Shown here one piece after another: positions 1,556-60,770 of a stretch of DNA of 64,000 nt (its first letter is position 1; every line of letters starts with the position of its first letter). Source of the stretch: Eledone cirrhosa (taxonomy: Eukaryota); contig OZ024743.1 in assembly GCA_964016885.1 (NCBI GenBank), positions 256,432,001-256,496,000 on the forward strand, in the 5' to 3' direction. The notes below the pieces were generated by a model that worked only from the letters and a program-made list of their open reading frames with translations, searched no databases and was not told the DNA's origin. The translations under genes and the position numbers were made by a program.

Positions 1556-1921
1556 ATATACAATATATTAATAAATGGAAACTATATTTATAAAACCATA
1601 TTTATTTTATTATACATATTTCAAGGGCAACCAAGGCAAATTATGGTGCGCTTTCATCAGATACAATACAGATTTGTTTTATAAATAAATATTGACATAC
1701 CCGGAAAAAAAGACAACGTTAAGGTTGTCTTGTTTTCCAGGTATGTCAATATTTATTTATAAAACAAATCTGTATTGTATCTGATGAAAGCGCACCATAA
1801 TTTGCCTTGGTTGCCCTTGAAATATGTATAATAAAATAAACATGGTTTTATAAATATAGTTTCCATTTATTAATATATTGTATATTTACTCCACTAAACT
1901 GTTGAGAGCCTTATATCAGTT
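1556..1921. mobile_element. Mini fold-back PLE-end element (arms ~1556-1717 and ~1724-1885, tail to 1921) in a (TA)n context
   Basis: Near-perfect ~160-bp inverted repeat with a ~6-nt loop; each arm carries a hammerhead motif; flanked by TA-rich sequence. Confidence 0.75.
1771..1840 (+). ncRNA. Minimal type I hammerhead ribozyme (mirror copy at 1601-1670, minus strand)
   Basis: tgtattgtat CTGATGA aagcgcacc..ggttgccctt GAAA TATGTA TA ataaaataaa: canonical core, stem II, near-palindromic stem III, stem I 8/10 paired. Confidence 0.7.
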
Positions 1922-2016
1922 ATACATTTTTTAAAATTAAATATAACCTCTTCATATATATATATATATATATATATATATATGTTTGTATATATGTATA
2001 TATGTATATATATAAA

Positions 2017-3862
2017 TTAAACAGCGGCAAATCACCTGGAATGGATGGACTGAGTGCCAAGATTTTAAAGTGTGCTGGTGATAACTTCTTAAACCACTTC
2101 ACTGATCTCTTTGTGAATGTTTGGAATGAAGAAGATGTGATACAAGATTGGAAAGATGCATTGATAGTGGTACTTTAGAAAGGAAAGGGAGCCAAAGATG
2201 ACTGTGGCAACTACAGATGTATTTTACTGCTATCTGTGGCTGGGAAGATCTTGTGCAGGATATTGTTGGACAGATTGATACGGCACATTGCTGTTGAGGT
2301 ACTTCCTGAGTCCCAATGTGGCTTTAGGAATGGCAGAGGCACTGTTGACATGATCTTCTCGGCCAAACAACTTCAAGAGAAATGCATTGAGCAGCACATG
2401 GACTTATACCAAGATTTTGTCGATCTGACCAAGGCATTTGACACCGTTAATCAGAAGGCTTTGTCGGTTATTTTGAAGAGATTGGGCTGTCCTGAAAAGT
2501 TTGTGAACATTCTGAAACTCTTCAACGATGACATGCAGGCATGGTGAATGTTAGAGGTAAACTGTCTGAACCAATCTCTATTGAAAATGGTGTCAAGCAG
2601 GATGATATACCTGCACCGACTTTGTTTGCCTTGTATTTCGCGATGGTGTTCTTCATGGCCTTCAGGGATTGTCAACACAGTATCTATCTCAGATATCACA
2701 CTTCTGGCAAGCTGTTTAACCTTAGGCCTCTCCCTGCCAACAATAAGGTACTGAGTACCTTGATCAGGGAATTTTTATATGCAGATGATTGTGATCTCTT
2801 TGCACACTCCCAGAGTGACATGCAACACCTTATGGATTCTTTTTCCAATGCGTGCAGTGCTTTGGGACTGACAATCAGTCTGAAGAAGACTGTGATCATA
2901 TACCAACCTGCTCCGGATAAAGTTTTCAATGAACCCTATACGGTCAAAAGCTGAAGGGTGTTGACACATTTGTGTATTTGGGGAGTACTCTGAGTGTGGC
3001 CTGCTCTCTGGATGCAGAAGTTGGTCTATGTGTTAGTAAGGCAAGTGAGTCATTTGGAAGGCTCAACGACCCTCTTTGGTGCAGGCGAGGAATCACAATG
3101 AGGACCAAGGTGAGAGTGTATGCTGCATGTGTATTGTCAGCTTTGCTGTATGCATGTGAGACATGGGTTGATTACAAACGGAATATCCACAGACTGGAAC
3201 GGTTTCACCAGCAGTGTCTCAGAAAGATGCCCGGTATCAAGTGGCAGATGCATGTGAGTGATGTTGAGGTCCTTGAGAGAAGTGAGTGTCGGAGCATTGA
3301 GAGTATCATCCACCAATGGCATTTGTGATGGACTGGACACCTCTGCAGAATGGAGGATGATTGAATCCCAAAAAAACTCTTGTATGGCGAGCTTTGTGAG
3401 GGTAAGAGACCACCTCACAAGCCAAAGCTCTGATTCAAGGATTGTGTAAAGGACTCATTGAAAAAAACTGGTTTGATGATGGCTGACTGGGAGATAGAAG
3501 CTCTTGAGAGAGAGACTTAGCGTGGAATGGTGAATGATGGGGTCCATAATTTTGAGGACAGATGCATAGAGCGTGAGAAGATCAAACGGGATGTGCATAA
3601 GCAATGCCCTGGTGTATCTCTCAAAACAATCGGTGTCTCCATTGAATTGAAATGCCCTGAGTGTGGAAAAATTTGCTTGAGAAAATCTGGTCTCATGAGC
3701 CACAGTCGCAGCCATGTTTAAAGAGAACCAGTGAACTATGATCTCCACAGTGTTGTGAGGGTTCACGGGCAACCTGATGCAGGCTTGAAAAGCCATATCC
3801 GAGCATCCCACATCTGAATCTGACAAGCGATTGCAATACTCTTGGCAGAGTTTGCAGCTATC
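2017..3862 (+). mobile_element. 5'-truncated RTE-clade (BovB-like) LINE; decayed RT plus C-terminal C2H2 zinc fingers
   Basis: GKSPGMDG, PESQCGFR, FVDLTKAFDTV, GVKQ, FLYADDC, YLGS, LLYACETW and CPECGK..GLMSHSRSH across frameshifts and stops. Confidence 0.93.
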
Positions 3863-4020
3863 ATATATATATATATATATGTGTGTGTGTGTATGTATGT
3901 ATATATATACATGTATATATATGTATGTATGTATGCATGTATATATATATATATATATATATATATATATATATATATATATAGTAATAAGAATATTTAT
4001 ATTTATATATGTTTGATATA

Positions 4021-58345: not shown

Positions 58346-58860
58346 TACACATACATATATATATACACCTACCCACATATATAATTATACTCACACACAT
58401 ACATACATACATATGAACATACGTACCTACACACACATATACATACATACATACATGCACACGTACATACATACAAACATGTGTATACACACATACATAT
58501 ATAAGTATATATATGTATATATACATACACACACATACATATATATATATATATATATATATATATATATATATATAGAGAGAGAGAGAGAGAGAGAGAG
58601 ATTCCTGATGATGTATACATATATATATATATATATATATAGAGAGAGAGAGAGATTCCTGGTGATTTCTAAAGAATGAAACAGTTCTAGTCGTGTACAA
58701 TCTCATCTATATTAAAACTTTTATACTCTGCAATGTATTGAGTACCTTACTTACTGTGGTTACCTCCGATTCAACCCGGAATAACGTACCGATATATATA
58801 TATACATATATATATATATATACATATATATATATACATATATATATACATATATATATA

Positions 58861-59145
58861 TTTAATGTATAATAAACAATACAATATAATTACCTCATTA
58901 CCAGAGGTTTCCCGAATAAGACGAATACGAAAAACGTCCTCATTCGTTCATCGGACAAGGCAATAATTGCCTTGTCCGATGAACAAATGAGGACATTTTT
59001 CGTATTCGTCTTATTCGGGAAACCTCTGGTAATGAGGTAATTATATTGTATCGTTTATTATACATTAAATTTTGCTCTGCTACTTACATAGAACACTCTT
59101 CACTCCTAAGACTTTTACAATTTTCAACGGAAACTTCAATACTTT
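58861..59145. mobile_element. Mini palindrome (~58861-59069) with two back-to-back hammerheads, plus tail
   Basis: Near-perfect ~100-bp arms; plus motif at 58970-59037 ccttgt CCGATGA..GAAA CCTCTGG TA atgagg; mirror at 58893-58960. Confidence 0.75.
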
Positions 59146-59146
59146 C

Positions 59147-60770
59147 GGTCCGTCGAAAACAGCATTTGTAAAGTTTCCTCCGAGCATAAATTGCACGGAC
59201 GGCGTCCTCCCGTGTAAGAATTGGCTCTGGACAGTAATCTCCAAGTGAGATCACCTATGATCTCACTTGGAGATTACTGTCCAGAGCCAATTCTTACACG
59301 GGAGGACGCTGTCCGTGCAATTTATGCTCGGAGGAAAATGCTGTTTTCGACGGACCAACTCCTAAACAAGAAAGATGAACTGGTTACTGCATGTAAACAT
59401 AGATTGCGTAGGACTTACCTCGCCCTCAAACCCCATAATGACCCGGGGGGGGGGGGGGGGGGTAGACTAGGGCTATAACACCCCACTTGCCGATTTTGCA
59501 ATGGGTAACCCCTGCTTGCCAAGGAAGACGTAAGATCTTCTTTGTATTCTTTTATCGCTTCCTTTATTTCCTTCCCCCTCTCTCCTTTGTCCTTCTACCC
59601 CAGCTCTTCTCCTTTGTCGGCGTCTTTTCTCGCCCACCCGAGGCTGCCCTTTGGCCCCATGTAGCCTTAGTACCCCCACCACCCCCTCCCCTAGTCTATG
59701 ATAGATTTGGCGGACTCCGCCCTTTATAGCAGTTGGCTTAGACCCCGGATACTTGCCCCCTTTTTCCGACCGCTCCCACTATTCTCTGTGCCCTCTATAT
59801 TTCTTAGTGGCACTTATGCCTTATTTTTTCGTTTCAGTATTTCTTGCTTCGCTTTTCTTCTGTGCGGGTGGATTCTGAATTTATTTCTCCGTACTCTACC
59901 TTGATTTCGTACGAACTTTCATGTAGCTTGTTTTAGATCTTTTAGAGTTAGCATTAGTATATATTTTTCTCGGGACTCAGAATTATTATCTCGTACAAGT
60001 TCACTTTGCTGCACTGGGTCGTTGCTGGCCCGGGATGGAAACCTTTATTGTTTATTTCGTGGTAGTCTCTTTAGTATTTTGGCCCCTTTTGTTGACCCGT
60101 CACCGTATCATTTACGTACTTATACCTCTTAAAAGGGTCCTTGCCTAATTCGTCCCACCTAGTTCTTTTACTTATTTCGTTATTTCTTTATTTCTTTATT
60201 TATTTATTTCTTTACTTCTTTCTTTCTTTCTTTATTTTATTCTAGCCTAACAATAGCCTGAGACCTAGGTCGTAGAATTTAATTTACTTTACTTTTTTCT
60301 TTACACTTATTTGCTTTTCTTCACTCTCAGTATTTTTTCTTTCCTATATATTTCTACCCCCCATTGTTCTACCTACCGTTCCGACTTCCTCCCCCTCCCC
60401 CTCCCCTGTATCTTCTTTGACCTCATGCCCAGCTGTAGCTGGCACTACCAACGCTTGATTGGGTCTACTCCACCCCCTCCCCTCTTTCTCCTACTGGCAG
60501 GTTTAGCCACCATCTCCCCTACTAATTTGCAACCACAGAATTACTACTGATTTTTGACAATCACTTTGACCATATATGGAATTACCCCTTGAGAAGATCG
60601 GCTATTTAAATACCAGGATAAATTTTCATTTAGTCCAGAATTAGCCGTCGAAACGGCTTGAGCTCAGCTGTCGGGGTCTTACTGGTTCCTATTACCCACT
60701 CTACTACCTCAAGTATCGAGTACTTTGGTGCGTTATGGTCCACCTGGTTCCTTACCACATTTCCTTCGTT
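59147..60770 (+). mobile_element. Truncated copy of the 47695 Hydra-like family with a short internal inversion (~59147-59252 vs ~59258-59355)
   Basis: GIY-YIG end LLNKKDELVTACKHR, homologous 3' region, same terminus. Confidence 0.85.

Follow-up and report, generated by a model that had tools for sequence, protein, structure and literature searches.

The 64-kb stretch of Eledone cirrhosa contig OZ024743.1 analysed here (the window) carries a series of inverted copy pairs whose 3′ ends face outward (Table 1). A first-pass annotation had listed 13 such insertions as two outward 3′ ends, and self-comparison of the window recovered this arrangement at 13 of 13 sites; at each of them one arm stops flush at a microsatellite (F) and the other continues into a family-specific tail (T) of about 40-113 nt, which usually ends where the next (TA)n tract begins. 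The annotation had also pictured a fold-back at each site, insertions of unrelated families and arms that stop at TA, and these claims stand only in part. Inverted pairs are present throughout, but those at 5424 and 14753 are not compact, their partner arms lying far away. The insertions at 29265, 32929, 47695 and 57686 belong, together with a copy whose end lies at 60768, to one family (A) or its relatives, and those at 46716 and 54481 are mutually related, so not all of the families are unrelated. The flush arm at 55447 (55446 in Table 1) has no direct contact with TA, as it adjoins (GA)5 and then (TA)n, and the tail at 58861 abuts another insertion, not TA. TA-like bases at the flush point were confirmed: at least three alternating T/A bases occur there in nine of 11 window insertions, five of the 11 having been read by eye. 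In self-comparison, the two arms of a window pair diverge by 1-17% and are thus not fold-back copies made by the assembler, an artefact that had been raised as an alternative.

Table 1. Inverted insertions in the window (coordinates are window positions)
Position	Feature	Flush arm	Tailed arm	Tail	Further details
1556..1953	family E hairpin	1556-1720 (minus)	1721-1885	1886-1953 (~68 nt)	arms 97% complementary; flanked by (TA)n 1539-1560 and 1954-2014
5430..12418	family G pair, distant arms	5430-5990 (left arm, flush at 5430)	11780-12349 (right arm)	~69 nt after right arm, reaching (TA)n at 12419	98% inverted match, 5430-5990 vs 12339-11780; hammerhead core motifs 5463-5485(-) and 12284-12306(+)
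14459..14695	short hairpin	14459-14531	14532-14612	14613-14695 (83 nt)	91% palindrome 14451-14612 (self-comparison)
14753..19129	pair, distant arms	14753-15130 (left-flush)	18660-19044	~85 nt, probable end; (TA)n starts 19130	93% inverted match, 14753-15130 vs 19044-18660
29262..29453	family A short hairpin	29262-29318	29318-29377	29378-29453 (~76 nt)	
32931..33253	family A hairpin	33102-33253 (plus)	32931-33103 (minus)	32931-33008 (~78 nt)	
46713..47672	family C pair	46713-47320 (minus, longer)	47319-47631 (plus)	47632-47672 (41 nt)	one hammerhead core per arm, 46926-46953(-) and 47389-47416(+)
47692..51352	family A pair	47692-50426 (minus, 2.7 kb)	50423-51275 (plus)	51276-51352 (77 nt)	flush copy: RT-like ORF 50428-49556, GIY-YIG-like ORF 49626-48943
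52304..53937	family D pair	53140-53937 (plus)	52304-53139 (minus)	52304-52348 (45 nt)	arms 86% alike
54482..55410	family C relative	54482-55328 (minus)	55329-55351 (plus, just 23 nt)	55352-55410 (59 nt)	flush copy: GIY-YIG ORF 55369-54881
55446..57668	family B pair	55446-56564 (minus)	56565-57555 (plus)	57556-57668 (113 nt)	flush copy: GIY-YIG ORF 56562-56005
57688..57858	family A relative, short hairpin	to ~57858 (plus)	minus arm	57688-57765 (~78 nt)	
58862..59146	short hairpin			59071-59146 (~76 nt)	palindrome 58862-59070, left-flush
59147..60768	family A relative, plus copy			tail end 60768, (TA)n from 60770	5′ end: 107-nt inverted duplication (59147-59253 vs 59254-59360), touching neither end point

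Identity of the elements

The elements are Penelope-like elements (PLEs), as the first-pass annotation had held: their ORF is RT-like and ends in a GIY-YIG domain, copies occur in partial tandem, some families have hammerhead cores, and the targets are (TA)n tracts. The GIY-YIG profile PF01541 matched the ORF at 54881-55369(-) (P0005) with 22.6 bits, at the cutoff of 22.6, and the ORF at 56005-56562(-) (P0004) with 21 bits against the same cutoff, and the domain is C-terminal in the 784-aa ORF of family B. Relatives of the family B ORFs (784 aa and 778 aa) are proteins of about 700 aa with HTH_animal, DUF8422 and GIY-YIG domains, and RVT_1 is present in some clusters, amounting to 18-77% of the members in some of the neighbour protein clusters. 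Pfam RVT_1 had no match at E ≤ 0.01 in the ORFs of families A and B, and a phmmer search of PDB with the RT-bearing ORF gave none; legible in the translations are FDIxxYYxSI, YRDD and FL.V, which we take to be RT motifs. A cysteine-rich linker precedes the GIY-YIG domain, and C..C..H..H residues are legible inside it.

Among PLEs, a hammerhead motif in the pseudo-LTR is present in the canonical clades and absent in Naiads. The core pattern CTGANGA-N7-17-GAAA had 10 matches against 0.65 expected; in families C and G each arm has one, and families A and B had none. A CGAAAC...GTC element of family A was considered as a hammerhead and dropped, no CUGANGA half having been found. No Rfam hammerhead match was obtained at the gathering score in the window or at E ≤ 1 in 46600-61000, and the microRNA-like matches of the Rfam scan are the hairpins themselves and nothing else. 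Seven tails folded as RNA gave z values from -1.7 to +0.7, which does not support a stable structure between the two start sites.

In the partial tandems of family A, a tail runs directly into the 5′ end of the next unit with no TA between (L011 and L021, and likewise L046, judged from its 3′ flank). In family B, a full copy comes after a partial one of 1.7 kb in L141 and of 401 nt in L142, again without TA at the join. Because the next unit begins right where the tail stops, the tail end is a unit boundary, and the earlier proposal that the tailed end corresponds to the RNA 3′ end is unsupported; reverse transcription may start there internally on a multi-unit RNA, a situation reported for PAc (PMC11167929).

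End points and their pairing across the genome

End points were collected genome-wide for five families (A-E) by taking, for each family, the 40 top-scoring candidates out of more than 1000, a sampling that leans towards young copies. Pairs were called partly by manual reading of BLAST chains, and the pair lists were de-duplicated by hand. The end points are fixed within each family, and the two-peak distribution foreseen by the first-pass annotation was found: 212 of the 226 3′ ends inside loci fall on two points (114 F and 98 T), and 14 lie elsewhere. Among 5′-to-5′ pairs with both ends readable, 61 are F+T, two are T+T and none is F+F, 17 ambiguous pairs having been set aside (F+T/T+T/F+F by family: A, 17/2/0; B, 7/0/0; C, 13/0/0; D, 11/0/0; E, 13/0/0). 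One end of each kind per insertion is thus the usual state, and flush+flush or tail+tail pairs are not frequent. Apparent solo copies comprise 25 F and 18 T, from which independent assortment predicts about 21 F+F among 63 pairs. A tail-seeded sample of family A gave an F partner in 15 pairs and a T partner in one. The T+T pairs (L040/L068 and L061, and also L021 in the tail-seeded set) mean that the one-of-each rule is not absolute. Solo copies of both kinds, F and T, occur with TA right at the 5′ junction, so either site is usable alone. Several tail copies were also considered as solo copies or L1-like inversions and rejected as such, being short arms beside long inverted copies that exceed the 1.5-kb flanks.

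In favour of a single event, the two arms are joined at their 5′ ends, where gaps are mostly of -14 to +30 nt and no microsatellite intervenes. Some partners consist of tail only: these were found in family A (L071, 24 nt; L056, 48 nt), family B (L085, 29-31 nt), family C (L113, L121 and L139, with 5′ ends within about 5 nt of the flush site, plus L138) and family E (L146, L165 and L168). Going by recurrent break points (3005/3005 in L009, L014 and L017; 611/611 in family D), some short hairpins seem to have been copied as units, by which the F+T counts would be inflated. Sequence identity also speaks for a single event in family A (98.2% within pairs versus 94.0% between pairs) and family D (98.3% versus 95.3%), but in families C and B it is no higher within pairs than between them. 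A raised identity within pairs could also come from gene conversion between inverted arms.

Short stretches at the start points match the repeat alongside, TA or TC. In family B, all 10 of 10 F ends beside (TC)n fall on ...TTTTCTC or slightly before it (by 3 nt in the alignment of L091), and those beside (TA)n reach a ...CATAT-like end 4-5 nt further, again in 10 of 10 cases. By-eye reading found the tail starts to be G-poor and AC-rich in families A, D and E and in the 14456 hairpin.

A putative integration route and its alternatives

With a probability of roughly 0.55, the pairs of one flush and one tailed arm are products of a single integration event, in which both break ends were extended by reverse transcription from two fixed start points 40-113 nt apart. 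The PLEs have inserted into (TA)n tracts, and the reverse transcriptase of the element would extend both DNA ends of the break, the two cDNAs being copied from one RNA, or within one RNP, possibly a dimer. The upstream (flush) primer would lead and the downstream (tail) primer would trail, and the cDNA 3′ ends would then be joined through a template jump. Equal arms would result when the follower catches up and unequal arms when one cDNA stops early, and a follower halting within the tail, which in family C would be at or near the flush site, would leave a tail-only partner. We infer these steps from the end products. A more specific version, which we hold tentatively and which falls somewhat short of an even chance, is that a single RNP is asymmetric, the two strands priming on the same template, one at its inner and one at its outer site, through 3-5 nt of pairing with the repeat. 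If this is true, the tail and the inverted repeats, a puzzle to the field, would both come from a single coordinated step, and the 61:2:0 pairing would be the first in vivo signature of such strand coordination.

F and T could otherwise be the ends of two processed or terminated RNA species that differ at the 3′ end and are each primed at that end, a pair arising from an RNP with one of each. The read ends of Anolis RNA-seq coincide with the two RT start sites of PAc (PMC11167929), and solo copies of both kinds occur here, but this origin is unlikely, since 61 F+T pairs against 0 F+F are unexplained without an added packaging rule, and the tandems, with the next unit directly after the T point, indicate that at least some templates pass T. 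Resolution by the endonuclease (EN) has also been considered, in which the GIY-YIG nuclease would recognise tail DNA in a symmetric intermediate and cut one arm at its tail boundary to leave a flush end. An EN-mediated origin of the tail is proposed in the excerpted text of Craig et al. (2021; PMC8557442), earlier work cited in PMC11167929 showed that EN requires the tail in order to recognise Penelope DNA, and the rare T+T pairs (L040, L061 and L021) could be unresolved intermediates. However, such a cut would need a reason for acting on exactly one arm, and it leaves unexplained both the tail-only inverted partners that long F copies carry at their 5′ ends (L071, L113, L121, L139 and L085) and the 4-5 nt shift of family B F ends with flank type, so we consider it improbable.

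A single tail-primed cDNA that folds, copies itself and stops at the bound RNA tail would yield a perfect palindrome with one flush end. The many short pairs whose equal arms break at the same position within a few nucleotides (L039, L060, L063, L058, L009, L014, L098, L126, L191 and L198) fit such a snap-back, as do short 5′ inverted duplications touching neither end point (L056, L059, L123 and 59147-59360 in the window). It cannot, however, yield the common pairs in which the F arm exceeds the T arm in length (47695, 46716, 54481 and 55447 in the window; L064, L071, L074, L088, L113 and L121), where the flush arm would have been RNA-templated and not copied from its partner; snap-back is therefore refuted as the sole route and quite unlikely to be the general one. 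As for the pairs not stemming from one event or not being real, TA tracts are crowded with insertions (e.g. L034, L038 and L063), as two independent insertions would have it, and Tc1/mariner-type MITEs use TA targets, as a foldback or MITE DNA transposon would. Both are highly improbable, as is an assembly fold-back: the arms adjoin at their 5′ ends and no TA separates them, their end types are paired non-randomly, they are 5′-truncated pieces of RT/EN elements with variable breaks and no fixed terminal inverted repeats, and their 1-17% differences are unlike those of an assembler fold-back. Also speaking against an artefact, the family A arm stops at 51275 and passes into (AT)n in short-read contigs (three runs, one same-species sample; one other species); among these contigs of repeats, which are short, none spans a whole hairpin.

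Comparison with known systems

The first-pass annotation had suggested a twin-priming route. In L1 twin priming, reportedly described by Ostertag and Kazazian in 2001, the second break end primes on the element RNA to give an inverted segment joined 5′ to 5′, and the L1 RNA is said to be split into two non-overlapping parts with an internal priming site that is not fixed. The PLE pairs do not follow it in this sense: both arms duplicate the same 3′ region from family-fixed start points and overlap across the whole length of the shorter one, e.g. 855 nt (47692-48529 versus 50423-51275), with no splitting of one RNA. Foldback elements and Stowaway-type MITEs have long inverted arms and insert at TA, whereas the insertions described here have no fixed terminal inverted repeats and show variable retroelement 5′ truncations and asymmetric ends.

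Closer parallels are found among PLEs. The excerpted text of Craig et al. (2021; PMC8557442) describes their anatomy as an inverted 5′-truncated copy with a tail at one end only, gives tail lengths of 30-40 nt, terms the mechanism undefined and, within these excerpts, contains no pairing counts; the same anatomy is seen here, but with tails of 41-113 nt and with the pairing quantified. In vitro, the Poseidon PLE PAc from Anolis carolinensis cleaves the two target strands and extends each of them, and its reverse transcription starts at two adjacent fixed sites, the intervening sequence being the genomic tail (Frangieh et al., 2024; PMC11167929). Its start region is AC-rich, its target AT-rich and its RNA template multi-copy, and a dimer is predicted; the study did not connect the two start sites to genomic inverted pairs (PMC11167929). 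The E. cirrhosa elements resemble PAc in two fixed sites bounding the tail, in an AT-rich target and, for families A, D and E and the 14456 hairpin, in an AC-rich tail start; extension of both strands and a multi-copy template would be further shared features. The first-pass annotation had attributed priming on both strands to the self-complementarity of (TA)n; this is not supported, since the target that PAc cuts and extends on both strands is no repeat of TA (PMC11167929). The PAc start sites have no homology to the cut DNA and the strands show no difference in site choice, whereas here the start points share TA or TC microhomology with the flank and the two strands nearly always differ in the site used within an event, so that one-of-each pairing and microhomology are not predicted by PAc (PMC11167929). 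PAc also belongs to another clade and was assayed on a target other than (TA)n, and the mechanism proposed here is read from sequence.

Two fixed priming points acting on both strands, as the first-pass annotation had suggested, are thus partly supported, and the core of that idea was already published in 2024 (PMC11167929); going by the excerpts of the former, it is largely anticipated by Craig et al. (2021) and Frangieh et al. (2024). The gain is incremental, in that a published mechanism is refined and no new one is revealed. Beyond the published accounts, as far as the same excerpts extend, are the near-obligate one-of-each pairing, the TA/TC microhomology at the start points and the tail-only inverted partners. 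A genome with thousands of young copies from several families is a natural data set for counting all three, and such counts constrain models of integration to both strands, at different sites, in one event.

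Inverted copies in the window and the elements that form them

The window is AT-rich and crowded with (TA)n tracts, and belongs to a eukaryotic assembly of 3.0 Gb. Self-comparison and direct reading found inverted copies with outward-facing 3′ ends at all 13 sites named in the first-pass annotation. Each site has one flush arm, whose 3′ end lies at the microsatellite, and one tailed arm, which crosses the flush point and continues through a family-specific tail of ~41 to 113 nt to the next (TA)n. Most of these sites are compact fold-backs as described, but at 5424 and 14753 distances of 6.9 and 4.4 kb separate the site from its partner arm. 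The supposedly unrelated families number about nine rather than thirteen; family A or its relatives account for 5 of the 13 sites, and 2 further sites are related to each other. Three further long inverted pairs (see table) are probably additional pairs of Penelope-like elements (PLEs). A degenerate LINE-type reverse transcriptase (RT) unrelated to PLEs and a weak tRNA match, possibly part of a tRNA-derived SINE, also lie in the window.

The elements are endonuclease-positive PLEs, in line with their first reading as PLEs: they combine RT-like and GIY-YIG ORFs with partial tandems and (TA)n targets, and this ORF content, the partial tandems and the (TA)n targets constitute the anatomy of such elements according to passages of PMC8557442. 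Pfam RVT_1 had no match on the elements' ORFs, nor did a PDB sequence search with the ORF. Family B, of which many genomic copies are 99–100% identical to the 151-nt seed, has a unit of 3.0 kb with a single ORF (784 and 778 aa at the two loci read), and the relatives of this ORF are animal proteins of ~700 aa with HTH_animal, DUF8422 and GIY-YIG domains, and RVT_1 in some clusters. Hammerhead core motifs (10 observed vs 0.65 expected) are present in both arms in families C and G, despite the lack of any match to Rfam hammerhead models. Partial tandems occur in family A (L011, L021, L046) and in family B (L141, L142): a 5′-truncated copy ending with the tail runs directly into the 5′ start of a full unit. 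Coding sequence of family A occurs at 95–99% identity in contigs of other species labels (runs X5, X6, X7), and family A is therefore common to related species.

Features of the window (plain coordinates) and of loci sampled genome-wide (L numbers)
Feature	Position or locus	Strand	Remark
ORF with RT-like motifs, then ORF with GIY-YIG-like motif	47692-50426		long copy; read in translation
GIY-YIG	54881-55369		Pfam, at threshold
GIY-YIG	56005-56562		Pfam, at threshold
Further inverted pair	21743-23170
Further inverted pair	26328-29703
Further inverted pair	60921-62470
Hammerhead core motif	21630-21652	-	near pair 21743-23170
Hammerhead core motif	22764-22786	+	in region of pair 21743-23170
LINE-type RT	2030-3330		RVT_1 E = 1e-14; directly after (TA)n 1954-2014
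tRNA match	20879-20936	-	30.2 bits vs gathering score 29; beside (TA)160
(TC)30(TA)48 tract	37105-37261		no family B copy
Family B flush ends, TC-flanked	55438-55446; L085, L089, L090, L091, L098, L099, L100, L102, L105
Tail-only partner	L071		24 nt
Tail-only partner	L056		48 nt
Tail-only partner	L085		29-31 nt
Tail-only partners	L113, L121, L139, L138, L146, L165, L168
Short 5′ inverted duplications	59147-59360; L056:1077-1199; L059:99-137; L123:1387-1417
Inverted piece at 5′ end	L075:3560-3880; L025:1150-1430		one full-length family A copy

Two end points and their combination

Seeds of ~150 nt, placed upstream of the flush point to avoid favouring either end type, were used to search for five families genome-wide. 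Each search scored the best 40 of 1041–1475 candidates, and 30 loci per search were read, with natural copies as references; 20 loci of family A were additionally extended. Ends ≤12 nt from the flush point were classed as flush and those ≥15 nt past it as tailed. Among 226 in-locus 3′ ends of these best-scoring copies, 114 were flush, 98 tailed and 14 elsewhere. Tailed ends fell on the main tail-end position(s) in 19/20 cases for family A, 14/14 for B, 16/17 for D and 21/24 for E, and formed two or three sub-peaks in family C.

Pairs were counted if their arms met 5′ to 5′ and each end could be read, and were de-duplicated by hand, the classification being partly manual; 17 ambiguous or incomplete pairs were left out. 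The best-scoring copies gave 61 pairs of one flush and one tailed arm (17 in family A, 7 in B, 13 in C, 11 in D and 13 in E), two tailed–tailed pairs, both in family A (L040/L068, L061), and no flush–flush pair. When family A was sampled separately with a tail seed, the tailed copy had a flush partner in 15 pairs and a tailed one in a single pair (L021). Copies without a detectable partner (25 flush, 18 tailed) include a few duplicated loci, and some of their 5′ boundaries may merely mark where similarity to the reference stops; both types include clean solo copies whose 5′ junction directly abuts TA. Independent assortment at these solo frequencies would give ~21 flush–flush, 31 flush–tailed and 11 tailed–tailed among 63 pairs. 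Because 212 of the 226 ends fall in two peaks and like pairs are rare against this expectation, neither of the patterns named beforehand as refuting, scattered ends or frequent like pairs, was found.

TA-like bases at the flush point, an earlier observation that holds, were read by eye as at least three alternating T/A in 9/11 window insertions; TAT/ATA trimers occupy 4–19% of arm positions in a partial set of these. At the family A tandem junction, TAT directly follows the tail end. Of 20 flush ends in family B, half (10) lead into 5–29 units of (TC)n and then into (TA)n. All ten TC-flanked ends terminate on ...TTTTCTC or immediately before it (with the alignment of L091 falling 3 nt short), and all ten directly beside (TA)n reach a ...CATAT-like end 4–5 nt further. 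The opposite side of TC-flanked insertions, where readable (window, L085, L098, L089, L105), carries only TA. The (TC)n may reflect either telomerase-like stutter of the RT on a start-site UCUC or a preference for (TC)n/(TA)n junctions. Tails at window 1886-1953 and 14613-14695 and those of families A and D have motifs in common: in otherwise unrelated short hairpins, the tail starts with an AC-rich, G-poor stretch (TA.ACTCCA..AAACTGT.GAG) and ends CCT-rich (CCTCTTCA, CCTTCGT, CACCTCCTACAT), a similarity suggesting that non-autonomous hairpin families have adopted a common set of recognition features.

Formation of the pairs

The arms meet closely at their 5′ ends, with gaps mostly of −14 to +30 nt and no microsatellite in between. 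Arms are more alike within than between pairs in family A (98.2% vs 94.0%) and family D (98.3% vs 95.3%); those of families C and B, the latter very young, are no more alike within pairs than between them. An origin from separate insertions, from DNA transposons or from faulty assembly is rejected in view of how the arms join, how end types combine and how far the arms diverge. Folding back by the assembler is excluded because the arms of a window pair differ by 1 to 17%. In addition, in contigs from short reads of the same species (X1–X3, one sample) and another species (X5), the family A arm stops at 51275 and (AT)n follows.

Snap-back of one cDNA, in which the second arm would be copied from the first, is contradicted as the sole route by pairs whose flush arm is the longer. 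Either arm may be longer, but it is often the flush one (window 47695, 46716, 54481, 55447; L064, L071, L074, L088), and therefore the flush arm was not copied from its tailed partner and was templated independently. Some tailed partners consist only of the whole or partial tail, inverted and joined to the 5′ end of the flush copy; three of these partners (L113, L121, L139) have their own 5′ end ~5 nt or less from the flush site. Some single copies carry a short 5′ inverted duplication (33–123 nt) that reaches neither end point; these duplications are consistent with snap-back priming of the second strand, which may account for them. One full-length family A copy (L075, L025) carries at its 5′ end an inverted piece spanning only the first ~240 nt of the element, which looks like second priming near the RNA 5′ end and resembles L1-type twin priming. 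Many short pairs have equal arms broken at the identical position, and some of these breaks recur across loci (611/611 in family D; 3005/3005 in L009, L014 and L017), so that copying of certain hairpins as units is a possibility. Two other rivals are that flush and tailed ends represent two RNA end isoforms, and that a symmetric intermediate is resolved by the endonuclease, as suggested in passages of PMC8557442.

Proposed extension of both strands and its known counterpart

In the simplest account, RT would extend both DNA ends of a single break, one from the inner and the other from the outer start site, whether on a single template or in the same RNP, and the two cDNA ends would then be joined. 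Two fixed start points with extension of both strands, as first proposed, fit the pair data; the novelty of this proposal did not survive, its core having been published in 2024 (PMC11167929). The one-flush, one-tailed pattern is itself an already described PLE hallmark, and PMC11167929 also gives the two-start-site explanation of the tail. The first-pass annotation had placed the tail end at the RNA 3′ end; the tandem junctions argue instead that it is a unit boundary, which can be internal to the RNA. It had also invoked self-complementarity of (TA)n as the reason that both strands could prime; both strands can prime without it, but it may explain why both ends are able to pair with UA-containing start points.

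On the mechanism of PLE integration, full-text searches surfaced only PMC8557442 and PMC11167929, and pair counts and microhomology are absent from the main text of PMC11167929 and from passages of PMC8557442. In vitro, the Poseidon element of Anolis carolinensis (PAc) cuts and extends both strands, uses two adjacent start sites bounding the tail, and has been predicted to form a dimer (PMC11167929); the account proposed here fits this behaviour. However, PAc showed no homology at its start sites, whereas the start points of the window and sampled families have microhomology, and it showed no difference between strands, whereas here the site used nearly always differs between the two strands.
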